Of a DNA stretch of 48,244 bases, positions 2,447-48,244 are shown piece after piece (the stretch's first letter is position 1; every line of letters starts with the position of its first letter). Origin of the DNA: a virus; UHGV virus genome UHGV-0308199. One strand, given 5' to 3'. The notes beneath the pieces are model-generated. The model was not told the origin of the DNA. It did not search any database and was given only the letters and a program-made list of their open reading frames with translations. The translations under genes and the position numbers were made by a program.

Positions 2447-2544
2447 ACAGCATCAGGAAAAATGAAGAACTATTTTTAAGCAGAGGCTTAAGCATGCCAG
2501 CGTTAATTAATCCAGGCAATGATCAGTTTTCGGTTATAAATTTC

Positions 2545-2880
2545 TTGCCTCACCAGGAATGCGCGGGATATAGTTTAAAGGTTGCCGCAAAATCGGCAGC
2601 CGGGCGTAGGAACCCGTGTTATCTGAAGGCGATACTACACGCGCTAGGCGTGTTTTTTTGTGTCGCAGCTTTGACTCACCTAAAATTTATGGTGTGGTGG
2701 CTGATTGTATTTTTTTATTTTTTACGCCACATCATCAGAATTATGGTAGTCCAGGCGGGGCAGCTTTCGGGCTGGCCGGTATCCTTCAGAGCCGGTATTC
2801 CTACCCCCGTCTGGGCTACCACCCATGAGCGTAGGAACTCCGGTGGTAGCGTTACCCGCTATCTGAAGGAGGTTGCCATT
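2545..2880 (+). promoter_or_regulatory. structured leader: sigma70-like promoter (TTGCCT-18-TATAGT, 2545-2574), direct repeats GCGTAGGAAC...TATCTGAAGG (2604-2629 and 2829-2872) and an intrinsic terminator (2637-2660)
   Basis: Read directly; second repeat copy supplies GAAGGAGG RBS for the ATG at 2881; ORF-track ORF 2494..3084 is low-complexity over this stretch. Confidence 0.4.
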
Positions 2881-3084
2881 ATGGCTACAGTCCCTGCTTT
2901 ATCTCACCCTGAATTTACCTTTGTCTTTCTGGCTGTCCGCCGTACAGACCGTGATGCCCGTCCACGCCCTGTGCGTGTAATCGCAGAATGCGAGCATGCT
3001 GCACGCCTTAAACTTGCCACTGAATTTATCCTGAGCTTTGCTGCCCGTATCCCTGTGAAAAGAGCCGGGGAGGTGGTTGCATGA
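2881..3084 (+). CDS. small hypothetical protein (67 aa) downstream of the leader
   Basis: ATG at 2881 with GAAGGAGG RBS 9 nt upstream; in frame with 3' part of track ORF 2494..3084. Confidence 0.4.
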   Translation: MATVPALSHPEFTFVFLAVRRTDRDARPRPVRVIAECEHAARLKLATEFILSFAARIPVKRAGEVVA

Positions 3085-3317: not shown

Positions 3318-3720
3318 TAATCAAAATTTAAAGGCGCATGCTTTACGAACAGCAGTCTTACGCTACTACATTGCTGATGCATTCATTTCCTTAATGGTGC
3401 GTGTTCATAATGAACCTGTTTATATTGAAGATGGCGAACGAATAGAACTCTCCCACGAAAAAGTGGTGAGTAATATTATTTACCATATTGAAATGCCGTG
3501 GGTGAATGAGTTTGGGGCTGATGCTGGTTGCATACTGGCCGCAGAGAAACTGGAAAAAATGCTTAAACCAGGCTTTATGTCAGAAAATATTCGCCTGTCA
3601 GTTTTTGGTGTCACAGAGATGCGTGAGGTTTACCGGGATATTATTTTCGGAGCACCTGATGGCGAACTACCCGAAGGTTTTGAATTTGTGAAGCCGGAAG
3701 GTCAGGAGGTGCTGCTGTGA
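3310..3720 (+). CDS. hypothetical protein
   Basis: 136 aa; stop overlaps primase GTG start. Confidence 0.5.
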   Translation: MNNNQNLKAHALRTAVLRYYIADAFISLMVRVHNEPVYIEDGERIELSHEKVVSNIIYHIEMPWVNEFGADAGCILAAEKLEKMLKPGFMSENIRLSVFGVTEMREVYRDIIFGAPDGELPEGFEFVKPEGQEVLL

Positions 3721-6404
3721 AAACACCGTCTGTATCCACGATTTCCGGAGCTGCAATTGGGCGCTGGCCTTATATCCTGTCAGCATTAGGTATTAAAGTA
3801 CCGTCCGCAGGACATCATGGGGCTTGCCCTGCCTGTGGTGGAAAAGATCGTTTTCGACTGGACGATAAAGCGGGGCGAGGGACGTGGTTTTGTAATCAGT
3901 GCGGTCATGGCGATGGTCTTGATCTGGTTCGTCTGGTGACAGGAAGAAAGATAAAAGAAGTCGCCGGGATGGTATCTGAGGCGCTTGCATTACCAGAAAT
4001 ACAGGAGAAGCCCGCATTGCCAGCCAGGAAAAAGGCCGCAGGAAAAGAAGCGGGCGCGGAGCGATATACCAGACTCAGACAGCAGTCCTGCAATGGTGAG
4101 CCGGTCTATCTGACAAATAAGAGCTTACACGGGTATTCACTTCCCTTGCTGTCACAGCCTTTGAATCTGGCCGGAATAACATTTTCCACCGGTTCATTAC
4201 TGCTGCCTTTGACGGATATTTCCGGGAATATTACTGGTGGCCAGCTTATCAATCCTGACGGGGATAAAAGTCTGCTGCCCGGTAGCCAGCTGTCTGGCGC
4301 ATTCATTGCCCTGACCGATATACCCGCTGAAACACCTGAACAGGTGATTATCACTGAGGGTTTTGCCACGGCGCTTACCGTCAGTCTGCTGACTGAAGGA
4401 TGGATCGTGGCGGCTGTCGCTGCCACCAATTTACTGAAGGTGACGGAGCAGATCCGAAAACGCTGGCCGGAAACCCGGATCATTCTGGCCGGAGATAATG
4501 ATCTGGCTGACGGCAAAGAAAACACCGGGCGTATTCAGGCAGAGAAAGCCGCCAAAGCGGTGGATGGCTGGGTAACGCTCCCTCCGGTACGCCATAAGGC
4601 TGACTGGGATGATTATCGGCAGGAAGTGGGGAAAGAACGGGCGAGAGATGCCTTTCGTGAAGAAATGACGCTGCATGGCAAAGGGCAGACCCGTTTACCA
4701 GAAGGGTTCCGGCTGACAAAAGAATATTTGTGGTACGACAAGCTGGTTAATAAGTCTGATGGTGATACAGAGATACGTAATATCAAAATTTGCAGTCCGT
4801 TGCGGGTGACGGCAATCACCAGTGATGCTGATGGAAGTAATTACGGGCGTTTGCTGGAATGGGAAGATACCAACGGAAACAGCCGTAAATGGGCAATGCC
4901 GATGGAGATGCTGGGCGGTAGCGGGGAAGAACTGCGCCGCGTTCTGCTGGTTAACGGGCTTTCTTACATCAACATTAACGGCATGGCCAGAGCATTCCTG
5001 ATGGAATATATCTCGCTGTGTAAACCGGACAGAAAAGTAACCTGTGTGAATAAAACTGGCTGGCACGGCGGGGTTTACGTTCTCCAGGATGAAGTGATAG
5101 GGCGCGAAGCCCAGTCAGTCATCTTACAAACATCGAGTGTGCAGGGGCGTGATTTTCGTGTCAGCGGCACATCAGAGGGCTGGCGTGAAAATATAGGCCG
5201 TTATTGCATAAAGAATGCCCGTCTTGCCTTTGCGGTGAGTCTGGCATTTGCTGCCCCCCTTCTGAAACTGGTTGGTATCGGCGGTGGAGGTTATCACCTC
5301 AAAGGGGAATCCACAGACGGTAAAACCACGACGATGAAAGTGGCTGCATCAGTATGTGGTGGAACAGATTTCTGGCATACGTGGCGGGCGACGGGGAATG
5401 CCTTAGAAGGAACGGCGAGCCGCCGCAATGATGCCACGCTGATGCTGGATGAAATCCGGGAGGTTGACGGCAGGGAGGCGGGAAATATCGCTTATATGCT
5501 GGCTAACGGGCAGGGCAAAGCCAGAGCCAGAACAGATGGTTCGGTAAGGGAAACCAACCGCTGGAATCTGTTGTTTCTGTCTACCGGGGAACTGTCACTG
5601 GTAGAGCATGCGGCAAGCGCCGGGGAACGTACGTATGCCGGGGTTGAGGTCAGAATGATCCAGATCCCAAGCGATTCGGGCAAGTATGGCGTGTTTGAAG
5701 AACTTCATGGCTTCAGTAGCGGGAAAACCCTGGCTGAGCATCTTGAGCAGCACGTAGCGCATTATCATGGTGCACCATTCCGCGACTGGCTGTATTGCCT
5801 GACCGCTGATCTGCCGGAACTGACCAGTCAGGCGAAAGCCTTATTGAAAGAGTATACCCGAAGGCTGACGCCGGAAAATGCCGGGAATCAGGTTGGCCGG
5901 GCTGTTACCCGTTTTGCTCTGGTTGCGATGGCCGGGGAGCTGGCCACAAAAGCGGGCATCACAGGATGGCCGGAGGGAGAGGCCTTTCGTGCCGCTCAAA
6001 GCTGTCTGGCTGCATGGATGGCTGACCGGGGCCATACAGCTAATCAGGAAGATAAAGCGGCACTTGAACAGGTTCGGGACTTCATGACGCGTAATCAGTT
6101 CAGTCGGTTTGCTGACTGGAATGACGACAGGAACCGGCCTGTTTCAATGATGGGATTCAGAAAAGTCGATAAAGGAGACAACGTGACAGAGCCGGTTGTG
6201 ACGTTCTACGTTCTCCCGTCAGGCTGGAAGGAGATCTGTAAGGGATTTGACTCGCGTAAGGTGGCCAGGTTGTGTGTGGACGCGGGCTGGCTGAAACCCG
6301 GTGAAGATGGCCGGACGCAAAACAGCATTCGCCTGCCAGAAATAGGGCTTAAACGTGTGTACCAGTTCAATACACAGGTACTGGGAAGCGCTGAACCTGA
6401 GTGA
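3717..6404 (+). CDS. P4 alpha-type primase-helicase (zinc-binding, TOPRIM, P-loop NTPase)
   Basis: 895 aa; CPACGG...CNQCGH zinc motif, ITEG and AGDND TOPRIM motifs, Walker A GESTDGKTT; GTG start. Confidence 0.9.
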   Translation: MKTPSVSTISGAAIGRWPYILSALGIKVPSAGHHGACPACGGKDRFRLDDKAGRGTWFCNQCGHGDGLDLVRLVTGRKIKEVAGMVSEALALPEIQEKPALPARKKAAGKEAGAERYTRLRQQSCNGEPVYLTNKSLHGYSLPLLSQPLNLAGITFSTGSLLLPLTDISGNITGGQLINPDGDKSLLPGSQLSGAFIALTDIPAETPEQVIITEGFATALTVSLLTEGWIVAAVAATNLLKVTEQIRKRWPETRIILAGDNDLADGKENTGRIQAEKAAKAVDGWVTLPPVRHKADWDDYRQEVGKERARDAFREEMTLHGKGQTRLPEGFRLTKEYLWYDKLVNKSDGDTEIRNIKICSPLRVTAITSDADGSNYGRLLEWEDTNGNSRKWAMPMEMLGGSGEELRRVLLVNGLSYININGMARAFLMEYISLCKPDRKVTCVNKTGWHGGVYVLQDEVIGREAQSVILQTSSVQGRDFRVSGTSEGWRENIGRYCIKNARLAFAVSLAFAAPLLKLVGIGGGGYHLKGESTDGKTTTMKVAASVCGGTDFWHTWRATGNALEGTASRRNDATLMLDEIREVDGREAGNIAYMLANGQGKARARTDGSVRETNRWNLLFLSTGELSLVEHAASAGERTYAGVEVRMIQIPSDSGKYGVFEELHGFSSGKTLAEHLEQHVAHYHGAPFRDWLYCLTADLPELTSQAKALLKEYTRRLTPENAGNQVGRAVTRFALVAMAGELATKAGITGWPEGEAFRAAQSCLAAWMADRGHTANQEDKAALEQVRDFMTRNQFSRFADWNDDRNRPVSMMGFRKVDKGDNVTEPVVTFYVLPSGWKEICKGFDSRKVARLCVDAGWLKPGEDGRTQNSIRLPEIGLKRVYQFNTQVLGSAEPE

Positions 6405-7638: not shown

Positions 7639-8520
7639 ATGAGTCATAATAAAAAGGAATATGCTAAATTTTTCCGTCGCCCCATTTTTTCATCCTTAGC
7701 AAAAGGTAAGGATATTTCGGATTTATTTGGGAGTTTTGATTCTTACTGCTATGAAACACTGTTTTCAAACAATGATAATAATGAACATGAGATTTCACTA
7801 AGGGATTTATTTACATCATTATATGATTTTTTGCGTCTGAATTATAGAAATGAATATGTTTATAAGACAGCACTTGTCAATAAAATAATATTCGGTAAGC
7901 ACAGCCCAAAAACAAGTTCGTCGTCCATAGAGTTACCAATTAAAAACTCTATAGTGGATGTTGCGGTGTTTAATGGTACGTCTACAGCTTACGAGATTAA
8001 GACAGAGTATGATTCACCAAAAAGGTTGATTACTCAAGCCCCTGATTATTTGGATGTTTTTGATAAAGTGTATATAGTTACACATCCAGAGTATGCAAGT
8101 AAATATTGTGCTTTAAATCTCCCCAGAGTGGGAGTTATGGTTTTGAATAAAAAAGATCAATTGAGTGTCATTAAGGAGGCAGATTCAAATATTGATTATA
8201 TTAAAAGTGACAGCTTGTTTTCAGTTCTTAGAAAGGAAGAGTTCTTAGCTATAATAGAAGATTACACTTCAACTAAAATAAATATGCCTAACGGATTGGT
8301 TTATGAATATTGTAAAGAGATATTCATGCAGATGCCATTAAACATAGCAAATAAATACTTTATCTCTGCTATGAAAAAAAGATGTAACGATAAAGTTTTT
8401 TTGGATTATATTTATTCTCTTCCAGCATGTTTACGTGTTTTAGGTTATGCAACACCATTATCAAGAAAGCAAAAAGAATTCATCATGAATTTGATGGATG
8501 TAAAAATTAAAATTTGTTGA
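7639..8520 (+). CDS. cargo protein A, predicted PD-(D/E)xK-fold nuclease-like (candidate defense component)
   Basis: 293 aa; ~30-33% GC by eye; IVDVAVFNGTSTAYEIKTE gives D-x12-E-x-K signature. Confidence 0.7.
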   Translation: MSHNKKEYAKFFRRPIFSSLAKGKDISDLFGSFDSYCYETLFSNNDNNEHEISLRDLFTSLYDFLRLNYRNEYVYKTALVNKIIFGKHSPKTSSSSIELPIKNSIVDVAVFNGTSTAYEIKTEYDSPKRLITQAPDYLDVFDKVYIVTHPEYASKYCALNLPRVGVMVLNKKDQLSVIKEADSNIDYIKSDSLFSVLRKEEFLAIIEDYTSTKINMPNGLVYEYCKEIFMQMPLNIANKYFISAMKKRCNDKVFLDYIYSLPACLRVLGYATPLSRKQKEFIMNLMDVKIKIC

Positions 8521-8541
8521 TATCCTCAGGAGTTGTAAGTT

Positions 8542-9492
8542 ATGTATAGCCCATATTTGTATGCGAGAAGTACAGAGTTATTATGCCTTAGGGACCTCGT
8601 TGCGAAGGGAGTTAGCCTAAATGGTCTGCTACCAATTTTAGAACCAATTAACGTCAATACGAGAAATTTATTAACATGTTTAAATGTTTGGAATTCTGAC
8701 ATAATTGTTATCCTTAATCCTTATCAGGAAGATTTTTCTTCACACAATAACGTCTTAACTTTAAATCAAAATTTATCAAGTGTATTAACAAATAAAAATA
8801 ATATCATCTCTGGATATCTTATTCAGCCCAATACAACGATTAATGATATTAATAATTGGTTGAATGCTAACTTAAATAGACGAGTTGCACTTCTATATGA
8901 TAATCCATCATTATCCAACTCTGATATTCAGTTGTTGGCGACAAATCAATTGATTAGTTATCATGTTGTTTTAAATAATAAAATGCTTCCTAATCAGTGC
9001 GCTCTTCTTCCTTTGTCGAAGTTAATTATTATTAGCGATAACTTTAGAAAGTTAGCAAAAAATGCTGATTATAATGGGCCGGAACTTTTCACGCACGCAC
9101 ATCAATTCGTGGGACAAAATTACTTAGGATTTGGCGATTATACAATTACTGGCCAGGTACTAGATCTTGGAGGTGGTCAACCTTCTGCTGTTGCCGCACA
9201 TTTGGTGTTCAAGAATTTACAAGCGAATACAGTTTGGATTCGTCATTTTGTATCAAGCAACACGCAACGAGGAAGTTCAAATGTTACTGCAAAATTTTTA
9301 GATGTTTCAGATCAAATTACAAATCTTGTTCCCCAACATCCAACCCAGTTTGGCAGCAACATTGGTCTTAACTATTATTATTACAATAGTCAACCAACTG
9401 TAAGGCATTTCCCTGGGTTGCCAAAAAACAAACAGTATCAAATTACTCACCATATTTGTTTCATGCTGGATTTAATAGCAGGTCGTATTTAA
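8542..9492 (+). CDS. cargo protein B, unknown function (candidate defense component)
   Basis: 316 aa, N/L/Q-rich, ~28% GC; AGGAG RBS; 21-nt gap from gene A; 3' end overlaps convergent int by 21 nt; no Walker A/B seen. Confidence 0.7.
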   Translation: MYSPYLYARSTELLCLRDLVAKGVSLNGLLPILEPINVNTRNLLTCLNVWNSDIIVILNPYQEDFSSHNNVLTLNQNLSSVLTNKNNIISGYLIQPNTTINDINNWLNANLNRRVALLYDNPSLSNSDIQLLATNQLISYHVVLNNKMLPNQCALLPLSKLIIISDNFRKLAKNADYNGPELFTHAHQFVGQNYLGFGDYTITGQVLDLGGGQPSAVAAHLVFKNLQANTVWIRHFVSSNTQRGSSNVTAKFLDVSDQITNLVPQHPTQFGSNIGLNYYYYNSQPTVRHFPGLPKNKQYQITHHICFMLDLIAGRI

Positions 9493-10647
9493 TAAGCTAG
9501 CGTACCATTCCATCATTACTTGTCGATCTTTAATATATTGCGCATGATTGTAAGTACCTCGAATAGAGTTCTTATCAACATGCGCAAGCTGCATTTCAAT
9601 CCAGGCACTTTCAAACCCATGCTCATGCAAGATGGTGCTCATGGTATGCCTGAAACCGTGACCCGTTAACCGACCGTGATAACCCAGTAGTTTTATCACT
9701 TTGTTGATGCTGGCTTCGCTCATTGGTTTACTGACGTCATTCCGGCCAGGGAAAACGAGGCTGTAATTCCCTGTTATTTCTTGCAGCTTTTTCAGGATAT
9801 TGATCGCCTGAGTTGATAACGGAACCAGATGGGGGCGGCGTTTCTTCATCCGTTCTTTGGGGATCTCCCATAAGGCATTATCTAAATCAAACTCAGCCCA
9901 TTCCGCTGCACGTAGTTCAATTGTTCGCACGCCTGTTAGCATCAACAGCTGCGTGGCGTATTTGGTAACTAAACTGCCCTGATAGTTATCCAGAGCATTA
10001 ACGAACTCGGGCAACTCGCTTTCAGTCAGGAACGGGAAGTGTTGGGTTTTAGGTTTGTTGAGTGCGATAGCTAAATCGGGTGCAAAATTATACTTTGCTC
10101 TACCAGTGGCAACAGCATAACGAAGCACTTCACCACAGCGGCGGCGGATCTTACTGGTTTGCTCTAGCGCACCTCTTTTCTCTATTTTTTGCAGGACGGT
10201 TAGCAGTTCTAATGGTTCAATCTGCTCAATTGGGCGCTGGCCGATAAAAGGAAAAATATCCTTTTCCATACAATTGAGAACCTCTTTTGCATAACCCTCT
10301 GACCAGGTGGCTTTTTTCGATGAGTGCCATTCTCTGGCCACAGACTCAAAGCTGTTCTCATGCGCGAACTGCAAAGCAATCTTATCTGCTTTTCTGGCTT
10401 CACTTGGGTTTATCCCGTTGGCTAACATCGAACGCGCTTCATCACGTTTGGTACGTGCCTGTGCCAACGACACATCGCCATATACGCCAAAGGAAATCAT
10501 CTTAGGCTTACCTGCAAAGCGATAGCGAAAACGCCAGCCTTTACTGCCCGCTGTGTCGATCAGGAGTGATAGCCCCATACCATCGTTAAGCGTATAGGGT
10601 TTGTCCTTCGGTTTTGCTCTTTTTATTTGGATGTCAGATAGCAGCAT
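9472..10647 (-). CDS. int: tyrosine integrase, P4/CP4-57 family
   Basis: N-terminus LSDIQIKRAKPKDKPYTLNDGMGLSLLI...WRFRYRF (arm-binding type); C-terminus HGFRHT...LAH...GTYNHAQY catalytic motifs; start taken at internal Met (10647). Confidence 0.9.
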   Translation of the reverse strand: MLLSDIQIKRAKPKDKPYTLNDGMGLSLLIDTAGSKGWRFRYRFAGKPKMISFGVYGDVSLAQARTKRDEARSMLANGINPSEARKADKIALQFAHENSFESVAREWHSSKKATWSEGYAKEVLNCMEKDIFPFIGQRPIEQIEPLELLTVLQKIEKRGALEQTSKIRRRCGEVLRYAVATGRAKYNFAPDLAIALNKPKTQHFPFLTESELPEFVNALDNYQGSLVTKYATQLLMLTGVRTIELRAAEWAEFDLDNALWEIPKERMKKRRPHLVPLSTQAINILKKLQEITGNYSLVFPGRNDVSKPMSEASINKVIKLLGYHGRLTGHGFRHTMSTILHEHGFESAWIEMQLAHVDKNSIRGTYNHAQYIKDRQVMMEWYASLLNTTCY

Positions 10648-10895
10648 GTGTATAGAAAAAAGATCGAACTCAGTTATACACAATGTTATACGCAAAGATG
10701 TATAGATTCCATTAGAAATAATGGTACTTTGCTGGACGAGTATAAGGAGATGATATCAGTTAAAACAGTGAGTTATGGAATTAATTGAACTTAGTGAGAA
10801 GTGTTCATGGTGTCCCCTGCAGACATCTACTTGAAGCGGCAGGGGATTGATTGGAATGGTGTTTTTTAGATGTGAGAAATATTTTACCCGCTATT

Positions 10896-14235: not shown

Positions 14236-14724
14236 TTATTTGATAAGAAGTGAAGGTTTCCCAACTTTGAGTTGAGCGCCGGGGATATTTATTCCTGCTT
14301 TTAGTTGGTGTTTGATTGCCAGTTTGTCGGCTTTAATTGTCGTTTCAAACTCAACGTATTCAGGAGGAAGGGCGCTTGAGTCGATTATTTCTACAATTTC
14401 TGACGGTTTGCGGATTGTTACCTGGTGAATACCTGCTCGAATATTTTTCTTGCCAACCATTTCAAGCGATGACGCTATATATGATTTGATGCTGTCAATC
14501 TTATTTTGGATTACTGCGGCTCGCTCATTAAGTGACTTTGCCTCTTCCTTGAGGCGTTCAGCATAACCAGATTCATTTTTAATGACGGAAAGAAGTTGCT
14601 CTATTTTATCGGTAAATTCTCCTTCCATGCCTTCTATTGTGTCAGCAATCATCTCTGGTTCTAAATCTGAATCCATCAATTTTGCGTATTCATTGGCTAT
14701 TTCATACAGTTTGCTCACTGGCAA
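14236..14724 (-). CDS. recombination-module accessory protein (Gp157-like?)
   Basis: 162 aa, immediately downstream of recT in the same operon. Confidence 0.45.
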   Translation of the reverse strand: MPVSKLYEIANEYAKLMDSDLEPEMIADTIEGMEGEFTDKIEQLLSVIKNESGYAERLKEEAKSLNERAAVIQNKIDSIKSYIASSLEMVGKKNIRAGIHQVTIRKPSEIVEIIDSSALPPEYVEFETTIKADKLAIKHQLKAGINIPGAQLKVGKPSLLIK

Positions 14725-15604
14725 CCTCCAGTTTCGCTTTGCATTCTATGTAAATGGCTTGTATGTTCTGCTGCAATTTCATTCCAGATGTCAGGCGATA
14801 TGCTTCTGCAAAATATCTCTTCAAATCATCCATGTTTTCAGCCTGAGCCATTTCATCACAAAGAAGTTGTGCTTTTTCCATTATTTCCTGCTGGCGTTTC
14901 CGTTCATCTTCGCGGATATCTTCCTCTGATTTGTGCGGCATAACCGGTTCCTGATGCATACCCTCATCTTCGTTAAGCAGGTGAATGGCATTATCCAGTC
15001 GCTGGGCTTTAGGCCAGTATTTGCTGGCGCGTTTAACTATTGTTTTACGCGCCATCTCTTCCCAGAATGTCTTCCACGGTCCATTCTTTGCCTTGCTCGT
15101 TGCTTCCACAGCTTTAATTTCTGCCAGACTCATTTCTTCAGTCAGGTAGTCACCATCTGCTGTTTTAACCGTGCAATAACCACCAACAATAGAGCCTCGC
15201 TCACCAAATGCGTTGTATTTGTGGGTTGGCGCTGAATCAAGGCCATTTGATTCATAGGTGTCGTTTGAGTACACCAGTTTGCATTGCCCCCACTTAATTG
15301 ATCCTGTCGATTGCGCAAGATGAAGTAATCCCATGTAACTGATATCAAGGCACACCATGCCGTCGCGAGGAACCAGATAAGCCAGTTTGCTGGCCGGGTT
15401 TAAGGTGATGCCGATCGCCGCAACATTGATGATGGCGTTCTGTGCGCTGGTTGGATTTGCCAGTGCTGTTTTAGCCAGGTAATCGTTTTTCTGGAAATAC
15501 TGAATTGCAAACTGGCTTTCCTTAGCCCATGTCACCGTCTGTTCAGTCAATGCTCCGCAGAATAACTGCTCTTGCTGTTTAACGAATTCAACGATATTGC
15601 TCAT
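14702..15604 (-). CDS. recT: RecT-family single-strand annealing recombinase
   Basis: 300 aa; RecT-like core (TIVKRASKYWP...), acidic C-terminus. Confidence 0.75.
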   Translation of the reverse strand: MSNIVEFVKQQEQLFCGALTEQTVTWAKESQFAIQYFQKNDYLAKTALANPTSAQNAIINVAAIGITLNPASKLAYLVPRDGMVCLDISYMGLLHLAQSTGSIKWGQCKLVYSNDTYESNGLDSAPTHKYNAFGERGSIVGGYCTVKTADGDYLTEEMSLAEIKAVEATSKAKNGPWKTFWEEMARKTIVKRASKYWPKAQRLDNAIHLLNEDEGMHQEPVMPHKSEEDIREDERKRQQEIMEKAQLLCDEMAQAENMDDLKRYFAEAYRLTSGMKLQQNIQAIYIECKAKLEVASEQTV

Positions 15605-15912: not shown

Positions 15913-16683
15913 CTTTCTCCTGTTCTTTGTGCTGATTGAGCATTTTGTTCATCTGACGAATGAATTCTTCGTCTGACCAGTTATCTGTAAAACTCATGGA
16001 CGGCCTTGTTGTTTCAAAATATCCCAAAGCTTTTCGAGCAAACTTTTCATTCTTGGTTGTTTAAAGTCTGCTCCGGTTAAAATATTTTTTCGTGAATGCT
16101 GTACCGATAAAATCGGGTTGAAAGGGCGAACCGATGCCGCCCCTGCAATAGCGAACTGTTGCATAGGATGCTCCTTCTGTTTGATTGCATAACGAAAACG
16201 CCTCGAGTGAAGCGTTATTGGTATGCGGTAAAGCCGCCAACAGGCGGCTATTTGCTATTGATTCTTTTCAAGAACATCAATGATGTCGTCCGGGTTGTCT
16301 CCGTTGTCTTCACAAAATGCTTCGAATTCAGCCCATTTCGCGCTGATAAAATCAATTACTCTCATTAATTCTTATTCCATATTTTTCTCCAGACCAAAAG
16401 AATGCCGCCCATATAGAGCGGCAAGACTATCAAGGAATGATTTCCAATAATCAGAACAAGTCGGCTCCTGTTTAGTTACGAGCGACATTGCTCACATAGC
16501 AGACTCGCAAATCTGCTATAGGTGCTTATTCGCATCGCATGACAACATCAAATTTTTCGAGATTACTTTGTCGCAACAATCCCTCTTCTACGCGGTCAGC
16601 TTTTCTATAATTATCAAATTCGAAATGTTTAATTACTTCTTTCGTTTCTCGCTCTATAACTTCAACGATGTATTTCTTATTCA

Positions 16684-26455: not shown

Positions 26456-27104
26456 TGGCAGCAAATACCGAAATATTTGGGTAGTTGGCGACCTGCACGG
26501 ATGCTACACGAACCTGATGAACAAACTGGATACGATTGGATTCGACAACAAAAAAGACCTGCTTATCTCGGTGGGCGATTTGGTTGATCGTGGTGCAGAG
26601 AACGTTGAATGCCTGGAATTAATCACATTCCCCTGGTTCAGAGCTGTACGTGGAAACCATGAGCACATGATGATTGATGGCTTATCAGAGCGTGGAAACG
26701 TCAATCACTGGCTGTTTAATGGCGGTGGCTGGTTCTTTAATCTCGATTACGACAAAGAAATTCTGGCTAAAGCTCTTGCCCATAAAGCAGATGAACTTCC
26801 GTTAATCATCGAGCTGGTGAGCAAAGATAAAAAATATGTCATTTGCCACGCCGATTATCCTTGTAACGAATACGAGTTTGGAAAGTCAGTTGATCATCAG
26901 CAGGTAATCTGGAACCGCGAACGAATCAGCAACTCACAAGACGGGATCGTGAAAGAAATCAAAGGAGCGGACACGTTCATCTTTGGTCATACGCCAGCAG
27001 TGAAACCACTCAAGTTTGCCAACCAGATGTATATCGATACCGGCGCAGTGTTCTGCGGAAACCTCACATTGATTCAGGTACAGGGAGAAGGCGCGTGGGC
27101 ATAA
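26433..27104 (+). CDS. Ser/Thr protein phosphatase (NinI, lambda PPase type)
   Basis: GDLHG, GDLVDRG, GNHE metallophosphatase motifs. Confidence 0.85.
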
Positions 27105-27613
27105 GAGAACTAAACCTCACCAAAGAGCAGCACGAGTGGCTGAATGGCTGGCTTGAACTGTGGGGCGCATGGGTTTATTCAGGTCGTCTGGAAAAGCGCA
27201 TGAGCAGCGTAATAGCGAAGTTCATGGAGAGCGTAGAGCCGGGAAGAGTTATGACAAGGCCAATGTGCAATGATGATGATGGAATGTTGATTTCTCAGGT
27301 CGTCGATTCCGTCATGTACATTGACAAGAAAGCCTTTGGCATCCTCCTCAGCTACTACGCTCATGGTTCATCTAAGCGAGCAATTGCATCCTACTATCAC
27401 GCGACTGCAAAGCCACGCAAGATGTGTGGACGTGGTGGCGAGGGATGGAGAAAACCTTCACTGGCAACCTGTAGAAACGAAATTGACGACATCCTGAAAG
27501 CGTCATTATTTGTTTTATACCAGCCAATGCAAAATGCTTTCAAAATGCGTAAACGTGTTGAGAAAGTTAAGCATGTTGCTGTTAAAAGTCTTGACATGCA
27601 ATTAGCCATTTAG
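27095..27613 (+). CDS. Q: late-gene antiterminator Q (phage 82 / QuuD type)
   Basis: WLELWGAW...[12 protein letters not shown] pattern and position before lysis genes. Confidence 0.65.
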
Positions 27614-27660
27614 CCATAATATTCACATATGCTGCTGCTTTTGCATTCAGCAACCATCAC

Positions 27661-27686
27661 AAGCCCACCTCCTGTGGGCTTTTTTG
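27661..27686 (+). terminator. intrinsic terminator downstream of Q (candidate tR')
   Basis: AAGCCCAC-ctcct-GTGGGCTT + TTTTT. Confidence 0.65.
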
Positions 27687-27807
27687 CATTCGCGTGCAAT
27701 CAAAACAAGAGTCTTAGTGATATGGGCCTGAGATATGGTGGTGGAAACATCGCTCCGCTCTTGGCTGTCATATCTACGCGAACAGGCTCTATCCCTAAGG
27801 TAAAGCG

Positions 27808-28320
27808 ATGAAAGAAATAAAATTAACGCCAGAAATGGTGCTTTCTGTTGTTGATTACAATCCATCATCAGGCGACTTTCACTGGAGATGGAGGCAGGGG
27901 AGAGAGAGGACCACTTTGACATGGAACTCTCGTTTTGCTTTCAAGAAATGCTCATCAATAAATTCTGATGGGTATTTAATGATTATGATTAATGGTAAAG
28001 CATACCCTGCTCACAGACTGGCATGGTTGATTGTTTATGGCACCATGCCCGATGGTTTTATTGATCACATCAACAGGGTAAGAACAGATAACCGGATATC
28101 AAATCTTCGTCTTGTCACTCATTCCGAAAATATGCAAAACAGGAAAATTCAGAAGAATAATAAATCTGGATACCGTGGCGTGTCTTGGGATGCTAAGTAC
28201 GGGAAATGGAGAGCAAGAATTAATGCGTCTGGAAAGTGTATTAACCTTGGATACCATGACACTGCCGAACTTGCCGCTGCGGCTTTTGAGGCAGCCAGAA
28301 TGAAATATCATACCGTTTAA
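27808..28320 (+). CDS. HNH homing endonuclease (HNH + AP2-like), second copy
   Basis: 170 aa; AHRLAWLIVYGTMPDGFIDHINRVRTDNRISNLRL...GYRGVSWDAKYGKWRARI; paralogous to 22911..23498. Confidence 0.8.
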   Translation: MKEIKLTPEMVLSVVDYNPSSGDFHWRWRQGRERTTLTWNSRFAFKKCSSINSDGYLMIMINGKAYPAHRLAWLIVYGTMPDGFIDHINRVRTDNRISNLRLVTHSENMQNRKIQKNNKSGYRGVSWDAKYGKWRARINASGKCINLGYHDTAELAAAAFEAARMKYHTV

Positions 28321-28330
28321 AGATGTAAGC

Positions 28331-28370
28331 TGCCGTTAGTGACTCTTAAGTTGCAACGGTGGCTTTTTTT
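28331..28370 (+). terminator. possible terminator (imperfect hairpin + T8)
   Basis: CCGTT...AACGG stem with long loop, then TTTTTTTT. Confidence 0.35.
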
Positions 28371-28375
28371 TATTT

Positions 28376-28450
28376 GGGTCAGTCGTATAAAGGTCATTAC
28401 GGAAGGCTGTTAACCTTCTTATCGTGGTTCGAGTCCACGCTGTCCCGCCA
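28376..28450 (+). tRNA. tRNA, anticodon GUU (Asn) by manual fold
   Basis: Cloverleaf: acceptor 6/7 bp, anticodon stem GAAGG/CCTTC, loop CTGTTAA, T-arm CGTGG-TTCGAGT-CCACG, encoded CCA. Confidence 0.55.
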
Positions 28451-28455
28451 AATAT

Positions 28456-28531
28456 GCTGGTTTAGCTCCAATGGTAGAGCAGTCGCCTTGTAAGCGAATG
28501 GGTAGCGGTTCAAGTCCGTTAACCAGCACCA
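28456..28531 (+). tRNA. tRNA, anticodon UGU (Thr) by manual fold
   Basis: Acceptor GCTGGTT/AACCAGC 7/7, D-arm GCTC-CAATGGTA-GAGC, anticodon loop CTTGTAA, T-arm AGCGG-TTCAAGT-CCGTT, encoded CCA. Confidence 0.65.
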
Positions 28532-28773
28532 TAACTGAGCCGTAGCCACTGGCTATCCTGAATTCATCAGTGATAGTTACGCTGCGGCCTTCTACACATG
28601 ACCTTCGTGAAAGCGGGTGGCAGGAGGTTGCGCTAACAACCTCATGCCGTTTTGCCCGTGCATATCGGTCACGAACAAATCTGATTACTAAACACAGTAG
28701 CCTGGATTTGTTCTATCAGTAACCGACCTTATTCCTAATTAAATAGAGCAAATCCCCTTATTGGGGGTAAGAC

Positions 28774-29097
28774 ATGAAGATGCCAGAAAAACATGACCTG
28801 TTAGCCGCCATTCTCGCGGCAAAGGAACAAGGCATCGGGGCAATCCTTGCGTTTGCAATGGCGTACCTTCGCGGCAGATATAATGGCGGTGCGTTTACAA
28901 AAACAGTAATCGACGCAACGATGTGCGCCATTATCGCCTGGTTCATTCGTGACCTTCTCGACTTCGCTGGACTAAGTAGCAATCTCGCTTATATAACGAG
29001 CGTGTTCATCGGCTACATCGGTACTGACTCGATTGGTTCGCTTATCAAACGCTTCGCTGCTAAAAAAGCCGGAGTAGAAGATGGTGGAAATCAATAA
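28774..29097 (+). CDS. S: holin S (lambda type, dual-start MKM)
   Basis: Sequence matches recalled lambda S ([41 protein letters not shown]...). Confidence 0.9.
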
Positions 29098-29557
29098 TCA
29101 ACGTAAGGCGTTCCTCGATATGCTGGCGTGGTCAGAGGGAACTGATAACGGACGGCAGAAAACCAGAAATCATGGTTATGACGTCATTGTTGGCGGAGAG
29201 CTATTTACTGATTACTCCGATCACCCTCGCAAACTTGTCACGCTAAACCCCAAACTCAAATCAACAGCAGCCGGACGTTACCAGCTTCTTTCCCGTTGGT
29301 GGGATGCCTATCGTAAGCAGCTTGGCCTGAAAGACTTCTCTCCGAAAAGCCAGGACGCTGTGGCATTGCAGCAGATTAAAGAGCGTGGCGCTTTACCGAT
29401 GATTGATCGCGGTGATATTCGTCAGGCAATTGACCGTTGCAGCAATATCTGGGCTTCACTGCCGGGCGCTGGTTATGGTCAGTTCGAGCATAAGGCTGAC
29501 AGCCTGATTGCAAAATTCAAAGAAGCAGGCGGAACGGTCAGAGAGATTGAGGTATGA
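29081..29557 (+). CDS. R: endolysin R (lytic transglycosylase, lambda type)
   Basis: [39 protein letters not shown]... matches recalled lambda R. Confidence 0.9.
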
Positions 29558-29991
29558 GCAGAGTAACCGCGATTATCTCCGCTCTGGTTATCTGCATCAT
29601 CGTCTGCCTGTCATGGGCTGTTAATCATTACCGTGATAACGCCATCGCCTACAAAGAACAGCGCGATAAAGCCACGTACATCATCGCTGATATGCAGAAG
29701 CGTCAACGTGATGTAGCAGAACTCGACGCCAGATACACAAAGGAGCTTGCTGATGCTAACGCGACTATCGAAAGTCTCCGTGCTGATGTTTCTGCTGGTC
29801 GTAAGCGCCTGCAAGTCGCCGCCACCTGTGCAAAGTCAACGACCGGAGCCAGCAGCATGGGCGATGGAGAAAGCCCAAGACTTACAGCAGATGCTGAACT
29901 CAATTATTACCGTCTCCGAAGTGGAATCGACAAGATAACCGCGCAGGTTAACTACCTGCAGGAGTACATCAGGACGCAATGCCTGAAATAA
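29554..29991 (+). CDS. Rz: i-spanin Rz
   Basis: N-terminal TM segment, coiled-coil; position after R. Confidence 0.8.
29747..29938 (+). CDS. Rz1: o-spanin Rz1 (lipoprotein embedded in Rz, +1 frame)
   Basis: Signal peptide with lipobox LVVSAC, proline-rich mature part; entirely within Rz. Confidence 0.7.
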
Positions 29992-45877: not shown

Positions 45878-48244
45878 ATGACAGACATTACAGCCAATGT
45901 TGTAGTGAGTATGCCTTCGCAACTTTTCACTATGGCGCGTTCTTTTAAAGCAGTAGCCAACGGCAAAATTTATATCGGAAAAATTGACACTGACCCGGTA
46001 AGTCCAGAAAACCAGATTCAGGTTTATGTAGAGAACGAAGACGGCTCTCATGTTCCTGTTTCGCAACCAATCATCATTAACGCTGCTGGATATCCGGTAT
46101 ATAACGGGCAGATTGCCAAATTCGTAACTGTGCAAGGCCATTCTATGGCTGTATATGATGCATATGGCACTCAGCAGTTTTATTTTCCAAATGTATTAAA
46201 ATACGATCCTGATCAACTTAGGGAAGAGATTTTTTCTGACCGTATGCTGTTAATTACGCCACAGCATTATGGGGCGAAAGGTGACGGTGTTAACGATGAT
46301 ACGGTGGCATTTATTGCAGCAGCAAATGCTCTTGGAGATGGTGGAAAGTTATATATTCCAACTGGAACATATAATTTAATTGGACCAGTTAATATACCAC
46401 CAGTGAATATGTGTGGCGATGGACAGGGTAAAACGGTTATTGTGTTTGATAATACCACATCACCAAAAGATGGATTTGTTTTCGCTGCACCAACTAAGCA
46501 TGATGTTGAATTTGGTTTAAGTCACCTTACAATTAAAAGCAAAGGCGGGAATGGCGCTAATGCCATATATACCCCAAGAGGTGTCGGGCTTAATCATCTA
46601 AGGCCAAAACCAACATTTAGATTTTTATCTTTCTGTTCTGAGACTGCAAATATTGATTCTGATGAATTCGCACAGAAGTACGGTTGGGAATGGTCTTTTA
46701 ACTGTGGTGATAGTTGGCAGTTCACAATCGAACGCATTGATGCTGTTGGATGTTATCAGATAGCCAAAAGTTATAATGAACAGTTCCTTGATGGATTCAT
46801 TCGCACCGCTCCAGAAGAAGGTATTTTATCCATGCGTGTGAGTGATATCACAACGCATAACGTTGCCAATTTTTTTGAAATTAAGCAGAAGACATATTTC
46901 AATCTTACCAATGTCGATGTTGCTAGATCCCTAAACGGTGTTTATGATGCTCAGGATAGAGTGTTCGAATCAAATCGCTATGCGTATGGTGAGTCTATAT
47001 GGACAAACGTTATCATTAATAGCCAGCTTCACCCTATTAATCTTGATAACAGATTTCTTTTGATTGCTAATGGACTAGCCATACATAGAGCAGGAGGAGG
47101 ATATGACCACGGAAATGAATGGGTAGGAATTAGACTCATCAGACCAAGAGTGTGCACCATTAATGGATTGGAGATTAGCAGTGCATCAGGTTATACGACG
47201 ACTAAAAAAGGAATAATTATAGATGGTGGCGATGCAAACAACTTCATTAATGTAAGTTTTGGTACATTGGATATTGGAGCTCAGATAGGAGTAACATCAT
47301 CAATACATGGAGCAAATCAGGCGACAAACTTTTCCAATATTAGCATTAATGCTAATGTCACAACATTACTTAACATACAAAACGCACGTGGTTTTAATTG
47401 CAGCCAGTATACTGCATCTCCTCTCTACACTCTTGCCAATTTAATGGTCAATGATGACAAAGTAAATAACACATTTACACTTACAAATATTGATGGCAAA
47501 AATAATTACACTGATAACTCTATTTATCTTTATAATCAGGAAGCATCAGAAGATACCAAAAGATGGAGGATAGATACTCGTACCGGATACACACTATCCA
47601 CTCAGAAAGACAATGGTGCACAAGGTAATAACGCTATCATTATTCGTCGCAGTGGAATAATTGTAGACTCTATAGAATTACGCACAAAAAACGATTCTGG
47701 CGGATATCTTCTTCATACATCACCTGAAACTCATTTTTCTGGCCTTATAAAACCAACTGTTGATAATGTTAACTCAAACGGAACATCAGCATTTCGATGG
47801 TCACAGGTATACGCTGGTACTGGCAGTATCAACACGTCGAATGAAGAGCTGAAATTGCGTATTGAGGCTGACGAGAAAACAACAGAATCAGAGCGTCTTG
47901 CTGCGCTTGAAATAAAGAAAAATATCTGGAGGTTTAAATTTAAAGATGCAGTAAAGATCAAGAGTGATGGCGCTCGGATTCATTTCGGTGTTGGTGCACA
48001 AACTGTAGGTAATATTCTCAGAAAATACGGTCTTGACCCTAATAACTATGCGTTCTGGTGTTATGATGAATGGGATGATATTTATGCTCCAGAGGTATTA
48101 ATTAGGAGTGTTAAAAACAATGAAACAGGAGAGTGGTACGACGAGGAATATTACACAGGAAGGCAGGTTATTATTAAACCTGCTGGTTATCAGTATGGTA
48201 TCAGATACGAGGAACTTCTGATGTTTATTCTTATGTTTATTTAA
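45878..48244 (+). CDS. tailspike: P22-type head-binding N-terminus + pectate-lyase-like beta-helix + C-terminal intramolecular-chaperone domain
   Basis: N-terminus [11 protein letters not shown]...[21 protein letters not shown]...VLKYDPDQ matches recalled P22 gp9; [18 protein letters not shown] motif; C-terminus resembles endosialidase-chaperone domain; stop at 48242-48244. Confidence 0.85.

Follow-up and report, generated by a model that had tools for sequence, protein, structure and literature searches.

Tandem tRNA genes of the types Asn(GUU) and Thr(UGU) were described downstream of the late antiterminator gene Q in phages SfI, Sf6, ST64T, PS3 and 21 (PMC3636060). The annotations of Sf6 and phage 21 give the order Q, the late promoter PR′, a qut/pause element, the terminator tR′, tRNA-Asn, tRNA-Thr and the holin gene, with nothing in between. 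The Thr member of this cassette was characterized functionally in 2025–26, in connection with the Toprim nuclease Old from phage P2. Old kills by making two cuts in the anticodon stem of the host tRNA-Thr(UGU), at a paired CNG motif; this is the only tRNA with a UGU anticodon in E. coli MG1655, and phage Thr(UGU) tRNAs rescue from Old by replacing the cleaved host molecule (PMC12445682). The allele from phage 21, tRNA-Thr21, confers protection from P2-OLD; its anticodon stem is shorter, with pairs changed at both cut sites, and the tRNA is not cut without ATP and is cut much less at 150 mM K+, with site 1 being nearly fully resistant (PMC12445682). Rescue experiments from plasmids also support that this Thr allele decodes ACA in vivo (PMC12445682). 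Likewise, Thr(UGU) from phage HK446 allowed HK97, HK542 and Bas34 to plate at close to wild-type levels when the cells were Old+, whereas E. coli Thr(UGU) had no effect on the plating of Old-sensitive phages; a single tRNA rescued neither lambda nor the toxicity in recB mutants (10.64898/2026.07.10.737580). All the published functional tests used Thr tRNAs expressed from plasmids (PMC12445682; 10.64898/2026.07.10.737580). The 2026 preprint describes HK446 as a single-tRNA phage and doubts a defence role for the tRNA in this phage, because it also has the protein inhibitor Oad2 (10.64898/2026.07.10.737580).

A second nuclease, AriB from the PARIS system, cuts three E. coli tRNAs between positions 40 and 41, namely Lys(UUU), which is its main target, Thr(UGU) and, as a secondary target, Asn(GUU); changes U39A, A41C or U16C protect tRNA-Lys, and the Lys, Thr and Asn alleles from phage T5 together neutralize PARIS (PMC12409363). 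The 2024 Nature paper on PARIS mentions neither Asn nor Thr as a target; both were reported in the 2025 follow-up (PMC12409363). With respect to Old, the E. coli tRNA-Asn(GUU) is among the slower substrates examined (PMC12445682) and falls outside of the five preferred targets (10.64898/2026.07.10.737580).

Other phages carry comparable sets in different settings. T5, which is virulent, encodes more than 20 tRNAs and drives them from dedicated promoters. The temperate coliphage P1 contains a tandem with the same order and anticodons, with the two genes 2 nt apart, although the pair is outside of a Q-dependent late leader. The 933W-type Stx phages, which are lambdoid and belong to the same clade, have a small set of three tRNA genes, ileZ, argN and argO, in the same slot downstream of Q/PR′; however, these have other anticodons, for rare Ile and Arg codons, and are followed by the toxin genes.

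Here we analyze a 48,244 nt stretch of DNA (the window), which contains a P22-like (Lederbergvirus-like) E. coli prophage, and compare its tRNA locus with these systems.

Two tRNA Genes in the Window

ARAGORN identified exactly two tRNA genes in the window, both on the plus strand: tRNA-Asn (28,376–28,450), with anticodon GUU, and tRNA-Thr (28,456–28,531), with anticodon UGU. They are separated by a spacer of 5 nt (28,451–28,455, plus strand) with sequence AATAT, which is AACAT in phage 21 and Sf6. Comparison with Rfam model RF00005 using Infernal returned 55.3 bits (E = 2.5e-9) for tRNA-Asn and 61.5 bits (E = 5.2e-11) for tRNA-Thr, against a gathering score of 29, and both sequences have the stems of the cloverleaf, of 7 bp in the acceptor, 4 bp in the D arm and 5 bp in each of the anticodon and T arms. 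Their T-arms, GGTTCGAGTCC in tRNA-Asn and GGTTCAAGTCC in tRNA-Thr, conform to the T-loop pattern GGTTCRANTCC, and their D-loops contain a GG of the G18G19 type; the anticodon loops, CUGUUAA (Asn) and CUUGUAA (Thr), are both of 7 nt, with U33 and a purine at position 37.

The gene for tRNA-Asn encodes the discriminator G73, at position 28,447, followed by CCA; it has a four-nucleotide variable loop, UUAU, and two mismatches, U4·U69 in the acceptor stem and U13·U22 in the D-stem. The acceptor stem of tRNA-Thr is GCUGGUU/AACCAGC, with G1-C72 and C2-G71, base 73 is A and CCA is also encoded; the top pair of its anticodon stem is a G27·A43 mismatch and it has a C at position 14, where A is usual. 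In E. coli, the identity set for AsnRS comprises G34, U35 and U36 plus the discriminator G73, and that for ThrRS comprises G1-C72, C2-G71, G35 and U36; all the corresponding elements are present in tRNA-Asn and in tRNA-Thr, respectively. Folding by minimum free energy gave z values of around −1.7 for each tRNA and is not discriminating for tRNAs; the status of both genes was therefore judged from the covariance model and from covariation, not from the folding of single sequences.

These results show that both features are genuine phage tRNA genes. An earlier note on this DNA, prepared by folding the sequence by hand, had described two tandem cloverleafs 5 nt apart, with anticodons GUU and UGU and encoded CCA, and had proposed tRNA predictors as a check; ARAGORN calls both genes, in agreement with Rfam. 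The single T-T acceptor mismatch and the 4-nt variable loop attributed to tRNA-Asn are also found, and the second gene is indeed of the Thr type, but the clean stems that were ascribed to it do not hold, because G27·A43 tops the anticodon stem.

Structural Conservation of the tRNA Genes

To evaluate covariation in tRNA-Asn we compared 10 distinct phage alleles, all with a GGGUCAG-type acceptor stem. A MAFFT alignment placed an indel inside the T-stem, and pairs were counted instead with a cloverleaf parse anchored by position. Compensatory double changes were seen in 10 of the 21 cloverleaf pairs; four of the 21 were held constant by the pattern used for the search and had no possibility of changing. 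The U4·U69 mismatch was kept in nine of the alleles and was U·G in the remaining one. These compensatory changes and the conserved mismatch indicate that the tRNA-Asn cloverleaf is clearly under structural selection. As for tRNA-Thr, pairs 3:70 and 6:67 change from U-A in the alleles from E. coli and Salmonella to C-G in those from Klebsiella, whereas the anticodon arm, with G27·A43 and UCG/CGA, is fixed while these acceptor pairs covary.

Organization of the Late Leader

The genes surrounding the tRNAs are arranged in the order NinG, NinH, an NinI-type phosphatase, Q, PR′, a leader with a terminator, an HNH-AP2 ORF, the pause element and tR′, the two tRNAs, a second leader and the lysis genes S/R/Rz/Rz1, with all the elements from Q onwards on the plus strand. 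The late antiterminator (27,095–27,613; Pfam Phage_antitermQ, E = 1.1e-25) is of the Sf6 gene 59/phage 21 Q type, and has the position and length of Sf6 gene 59. The late promoter PR′ (27,591–27,620; TTGACA-18-CATAAT, 11 of 12 matches in a promoter scan) contains Q-binding repeats between its hexamers and is the same as the annotated PR′ from Sf6 through the −10 hexamer, except for one base just before the −35 hexamer. It is followed by a promoter-proximal leader (27,630–27,687) with a −10-like TATGCT and a first intrinsic terminator, detected in a terminator scan as a stem (27,661–27,681) plus a U-tract and with a predicted folding energy of −21.5 kcal/mol (z = −4.2); this leader and its terminator are common to HK629 and PhiR12 phages. 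Inserted in the late leader there is an ORF resembling HNH-AP2 homing endonucleases (27,808–28,320; Pfam HNH_3, E = 2.1e-18; AP2, E = 1.6e-8), whose counterpart in HK629 is annotated as an HNH endonuclease.

Immediately upstream of tRNA-Asn, and abutting it, we found a promoter-less segment (28,325–28,375) with the phage 21/Sf6 pause element (TAAGCTG) and terminator tR′, which is annotated as SDPE/terminator in phage 21; the tR′ hairpin (−20.2 kcal/mol, z = −4.8) is followed by U8. Downstream of the tRNAs, an untranslated leader (28,532–28,773) conserved in Sf6, HK629 and HK446 precedes a lysis cassette of the lambda type (Pfam Phage_holin_3_1), composed of ORFs S (28,774–29,097), R (29,081–29,557), Rz (29,554–29,991) and the embedded Rz1 (29,747–29,938), in the same gene order as Sf6 genes 60–64. 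The tRNAs are thus located upstream of the lysis genes, as the earlier note had placed them.

Similarity to Sf6 ends right after the −10 hexamer of PR′ and resumes exactly at TAAGCTG; PR′ and the old tR′ are therefore around 700 bp apart, with the HNH gene, a terminator and an alternative leader in this interval. The HNH-AP2 ORF and the extra terminator thus separate PR′ from the cassette here, but not in phage 21 or Sf6. HK629 has the same Q, PR′, HNH and tR′ segment, but an unrelated stretch of around 200 nt replaces the tRNAs, and ARAGORN found no tRNA in this stretch. The promoter scan revealed no further promoter-like site on the plus strand between PR′ and the holin gene. Being located in the untranslated leader of the late operon, the cassette would be transcribed from PR′ only when Q allows readthrough of the two leader terminators. 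Both tRNAs, with CCA already encoded, would then be released from the late transcript by RNase P and 3′ exonucleases from the host, and aminoacylated by its AsnRS and ThrRS.

Distribution of the Asn/Thr Cassette

Matches to the cassette plus its flanking sequences were obtained in 116 phage records, with 80–99% identity (at least 90% in 112 of them), and tRNA-Asn and tRNA-Thr are annotated in many of these records. Among 5,426 complete E. coli genomes, the 156-nt cassette is present in 369, and the complete arrangement including the HNH gene, annotated by PGAP, is found in 39. The organization of the cassette is shared with phages 21, Sf6, SfI, HK446, BTP1 and relatives, which have the same gene order and 5-nt spacer, and in which the tRNAs directly follow the U-tract of tR′ and precede the holin gene. 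The two tRNAs show 100% identity with the alleles from phage 21, Sf6 and HK446, and the entire 156 nt are identical in HK446, where they are placed behind a Q/PR′/tR′ of the lambda type; tRNA-Asn has no annotation in the HK446 record. The notion, also in the earlier note, that lambdoid phages sometimes carry tRNAs at this position is therefore well founded, as the same cassette is annotated in phage 21, Sf6 and HK446. Since the tandem genes were described with the SfI genome (PMC3636060), the Asn/Thr cassette of the late leader is already known, and confirming it in this prophage adds no new biology.

The content of the slot varies among relatives, being Asn-Phe-Thr-Arg in Klebsiella phage Mulock, and Asn-Gly-Thr-Arg, Asn-Arg or Asn alone in viral contigs. 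The Thr gene is not under selection in every case: in phage L and ST64T, tRNA-Asn is retained but followed by a decayed second gene, which is annotated as tRNA-Leu(TAA) and rejected by ARAGORN. From these comparisons, the cassette behaves as a portable module that is found behind different types of Q/PR′/tR′, and that is replaced, expanded or decayed in relatives.

tRNA-Thr as a Probable Replacement for the Host tRNA Cleaved by Old

The window tRNA-Thr is the tested sequence, i.e., that of both tRNA-Thr21 and the HK446 Thr(UGU), and belongs to the group of Old-resistant Thr(UGU) tRNAs, together with tRNA-Thr6 and those from T4 and Bas32. The anticodon arm of the host thrU has the stem ACUGA/UCAGU, with the paired motif CUG/CAG, and UAAUC|A at the site cut by AriB; the phage arm has GUCGC/GCGAA, with G27·A43 at its top, UCG/CGA and UAAGC|G. 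Consequently, the CNG motif (positions 28–30/40–42) is altered and the anticodon stem is shortened to 4 bp, which are the published features for resistance to Old. These changes in the anticodon arm confer resistance, whereas an extra copy of the host thrU gives no protection (PMC12445682; 10.64898/2026.07.10.737580).

We consider it likely that the prophage carries two functional tRNA genes in a mobile 156-nt cassette of lambdoid and P22-like phages, with tRNA-Thr replacing the host tRNA cleaved by Old and tRNA-Asn possibly acting in the same way. The phage tRNA-Thr, as a poor substrate of P2 Old, would restore decoding of ACA when the single host tRNA-Thr(UGU) is destroyed. This role, which has been demonstrated for the identical allele, was absent from the functions proposed in the earlier note, namely codon supply and att targets. 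Against a role in the evasion of Old, late, Q-dependent expression would come after Old had already been triggered.

The setting differs from that of the published tests, in which the Thr tRNA was expressed from a plasmid: here it is in its native late leader and in a phage without Oad2, Abc2 and Erf, the three HK446 proteins, which are absent from the window. The HK446 trigger of Old, gp33, has only a partial match of 21 aa in the window. A lambda Gam-type inhibitor of RecBCD was not found in the window, which encodes RecT-like and Mu-Gam-like proteins instead.

tRNA-Asn and the Determinants for AriB and Old

The host asnT contains paired CNG motifs, CGG/CCG, as well as UAAUC|C, whereas the phage tRNA-Asn has AAG/CUU in place of the CNG motif, and UAACC|U, and so lacks the host determinants for both Old and AriB. 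The phage tRNA-Thr has UAAGC|G at the AriB motif, together with an A at position 16. Thus, both window tRNAs carry substitutions in the U36-A-A-U39-C40|N41 motif or at U16 and are predicted, from sequence, to resist AriB. The numbering was validated with the Lys allele from T5, which reproduces the published changes U39A and A41C. U39 is replaced and the CNG motif is missing in both window alleles and in all the three anti-PARIS alleles from T5, two of which also share the anticodons Thr(UGU) and Asn(GUU) with the cassette, although there is no sequence homology other than in the general features of tRNAs. Nevertheless, a non-U residue at position 39 is common among tRNAs generally, so that the loss of U39 is weak evidence on its own.

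The loss of determinants was considered as a universal property of phage alleles, and this was rejected: paired CNG motifs are kept in the Asn alleles from Klebsiella and in the Thr alleles from P1 and KpF5. The P1 tRNA-Thr is around 80% identical to that of the window; the P1 tRNA-Asn differs in its acceptor stem and retains UAAUC|A.

ARAGORN found no tRNA-Lys anywhere in the window. Because Lys(UUU) is missing, the cassette is not a complete anti-PARIS set as that from T5, even if it covers two of the three target anticodons, and it could not neutralize PARIS-B185 alone. From the changes in its anticodon arm, tRNA-Asn may resist cleavage and stand in for a host tRNA that Toprim tRNases attack as a secondary target, a role that would parallel that of tRNA-Thr, and it may also add a modest capacity for decoding Asn codons.

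More tentatively, the pairing of Asn(GUU) and Thr(UGU) in lambdoid phages, P22-like phages and P1 could represent a counter-defence unit, co-selected against the ABC-ATPase/Toprim tRNases of the Old/PARIS family that reside in P2 prophages and P4-type satellites; tRNA-Asn would then replace the secondary target, with U4·U69 and the altered anticodon arm as anti-determinants. We regard this possibility as rather doubtful at present.

The first 10.7 kb of the window constitute a separate element of the P4-satellite type. It contains a P2-family capsid gene, an Ash-family ORF, a Zn-ribbon/Toprim/DUF927 primase and a P4-type integrase, as well as isrK and C4/CI antisense RNAs, and AT-rich ORFs of the sce7725/sce7726 families. 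Analysis of these AT-rich ORFs with PADLOC retrieved a single match, to the model "cll", and no components of PARIS or Old. The satellite segment was not found in phage records, and in 421 E. coli chromosomes, those of ST131 strains among them, it directly adjoins the end of the prophage. Because P4-type satellites and their P2 helpers carry PARIS and Old, there is a circumstantial ecological link, but no more than that, between this neighbor and the tRNAs.

Codon Usage as an Alternative

An alternative is that the cassette serves purely to supply tRNAs for ACA and for AAU/AAC in the AT-richer phage genes, especially in the tailspike gene, without any role in counter-defence. We compared codon usage in 51 ORFs from the window with 42 annotated CDS from E. 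coli K-12. The frequency of ACA was 16.3 per 1,000 codons in the window versus 5.4 in the E. coli CDS, around threefold, and its share among Thr codons was 29.5 versus 10.2% (p about 1e-20). Asn codons were also more frequent in the window (4.97 versus 3.77%), with a share of AAU of 0.55 versus 0.37. The AT-rich ORF for the tailspike (45,878–48,244; GC content 0.39, Pfam Head_binding) was the heaviest user, with 26 ACA and 67 Asn codons. The existence of one tRNA with a UGU anticodon in MG1655 also favors this alternative, as does the same bias towards ACA in SfI (17.3 versus 7.1%), but the authors of that work saw no bias for Asn codons (PMC3636060).

Other data do not fit with supply as the sole function. 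AGA (8.5 times), AGG (7.2 times) and AUA (3.6 times) are more enriched than ACA, yet the phage carries no tRNA for any of them. Likewise, the share of ACA among Thr codons is equal in early (0.298) and late (0.288) genes, and the early genes would be translated before the cassette is transcribed. Moreover, the host tRNA-Asn is multi-copy, and the close relative HK629 does without the cassette, with its unrelated filler in the same place. The resistance to Old conferred by the anticodon arm of tRNA-Thr, described above, also argues against a simple increase in dosage.

Codon supply alone therefore does not account for which tRNAs are carried, and we consider it unlikely as the full explanation. 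For tRNA-Thr, nonetheless, it is a plausible secondary benefit, especially for the tailspike: besides replacing the cleaved host tRNA, the phage tRNA-Thr would add decoding capacity for a codon that the phage uses three times more than its host. The proposal of the earlier note that the tRNAs supplement codon usage of the late genes or of the AT-rich tailspike domain thus stands in part, with respect to the enrichment in ACA and its use in the tailspike; specificity for late genes is not seen, the choice of tRNAs does not follow AGA, AGG and AUA, and the effect for Asn is only mild.

Integration Sites, Relics and Integration Compensation

The possibility that the tRNA genes are att targets for other elements, also suggested in the earlier note, or that they are decaying relics or mere sites for RNA processing in the late transcript, is highly improbable. 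tRNA genes commonly serve as att sites, and phage L and ST64T carry a decayed second gene that ARAGORN does not accept. However, no duplicate of the 3′ half of either tRNA was found within the window, nor was a tRNA-like sequence detected in it near the integrase, and 353 of the 375 matching E. coli records contain 80% or more of the 156-nt cassette in one uninterrupted place. Additionally, both genes in the window are intact, with all the identity elements and scores of 55–61 bits, the compensatory changes denote selection for the cloverleaf, and the Thr allele decodes ACA in vivo (PMC12445682).

Compensation for a host tRNA gene disrupted by integration of the prophage, raised for HK446 in the discussion of the preprint (10.64898/2026.07.10.737580), is similarly very improbable here: the attP of HK446 resembles thrW, according to its annotation, and ACG could also be read by a UGU tRNA, but the identical cassette occurs in phages with different integration sites, no tRNA-like sequence lies near the integrase in the window, tRNA-Asn would be left unexplained, and the placement in the late operon implies that the cassette is largely or fully silent in the lysogen, precisely the state that would call for compensation. 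SfI and HK446 use thrW, Sf6 integrates in argW and phage 21 in icd.

Implications for Lambdoid and P22-like Phages

As a phage without Oad2, this prophage would allow the evasion of Old by tRNAs to be tested more cleanly than in HK446. The results also draw attention to tRNA-Asn, the member of the pair that has been overlooked despite its strong conservation, its unusual and conserved acceptor mismatch and an anticodon that is that of a known substrate of PARIS and Old.

Genomic Context of the tRNA Cassette

The first 10,695 nt of the window form a distinct, P4-satellite-type element that adjoins the P22-like prophage. This segment includes a P2-family capsid gene (1,402–2,406), an Ash-family ORF (2,494–3,084), isrK (2,581–2,658), a C4/CI antisense RNA (2,739–2,826) and a primase-helicase gene whose product has Zn-ribbon, Toprim and DUF927 domains (3,717–6,404). 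These are followed by AT-rich ORFs (7,639–9,492; GC 0.31–0.34) of the sce7725/sce7726 family, as named by PGAP, one of which matched the PADLOC model 'cll', and by a P4-type integrase gene on the minus strand (9,472–10,695) that could belong to either of the neighboring elements. The segment was not found among phage records; in 421 E. coli chromosomes, those of ST131 among them, it directly adjoins the end of the prophage.

Within the prophage, the recombination module (14,236–15,604, minus strand) codes for RecT-like and Mu-Gam-like proteins and is of neither the Exo/Bet/Gam type of lambda nor the Erf/Abc type of P22. The only similarity to gp33, the Old trigger from HK446/HK75, is a partial match of 21 aa at positions 15,935–15,997. 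At the other extreme, the tailspike ORF (45,878–48,244), whose 3′ end is the very last base of the window, specifies a Head_binding N-terminus and a pectate-lyase-like domain; it is markedly AT-rich (GC 0.39, versus about 0.51 in the neighboring late genes) and shows the highest use of ACA and Asn codons within the phage.

The Late Leader and the Cassette Slot

The late leader contains an insertion of around 700 bp (27,621–28,324), with its 5′ edge exactly at the −10 hexamer of the late promoter PR′ and its 3′ edge at the 21-type pause element, that is common to HK629 and 39 E. coli genomes. It comprises an alternative leader, in which TATGCT resembles a −10 element, an ORF for an HNH_3+AP2 endonuclease and a terminator of its own. 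The late leader therefore has two terminators, and the HNH gene would be Q-dependent. The location of this gene beside tRNA genes is reminiscent of T4 and T5, the latter with HNH genes scattered between its own tRNAs. In HK629 (L004, positions 2,013–2,213), the exact slot of the cassette is filled by an unrelated and unannotated stretch of approximately 200 nt, bounded by tR′ and the conserved AACTGAGCCGTA leader, in which ARAGORN did not call any tRNA.

The Cassette in Other Phages

Phage HK446 (NC_019714.1, positions 15,098–15,253) contains a 156-nt cassette identical to that of the window. A 2026 preprint on Old (10.64898/2026.07.10.737580) states that HK446 encodes a single tRNA (Thr), in line with the RefSeq record, in which neither tRNA is annotated; the tRNA-Asn was overlooked. 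In P1 (L012, positions 1,425–1,578), the Thr gene is around 80% identical to that of the window and retains the paired CNG motif, and the Asn gene retains UAAUC|A. In the P22-like Salmonella phages L cII-101 (L009, positions 681–752), ST64T and ST160, the cassette has as its second gene a degenerate, 72-nt relative of the Thr gene, annotated as tRNA-Leu(TAA). ARAGORN did not call this gene, which lacks a proper 7-nt anticodon loop, and it is probably a mis-annotated pseudo-tRNA.

Conserved Peculiarities of the Two tRNAs

Position 14 of tRNA-Thr (28,469) is a C, versus the near-universal A14, and its D-loop reads CAAUGGUA, versus AGUAGGUA in the host; both features are also kept in the Klebsiella alleles. 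Residues U16 and U17 of the D-loop are a proposed contact for the non-catalytic monomer of AriB.

The U4.U69 mismatch in the acceptor stem of tRNA-Asn (28,379 and 28,444) is kept in nine of the ten distinct phage alleles, including a diverged family (e.g., alleles L017, L079, and L107). In that family, compensatory changes have altered every one of the D, anticodon and T stems. These results suggest that the mismatch is a selected feature.
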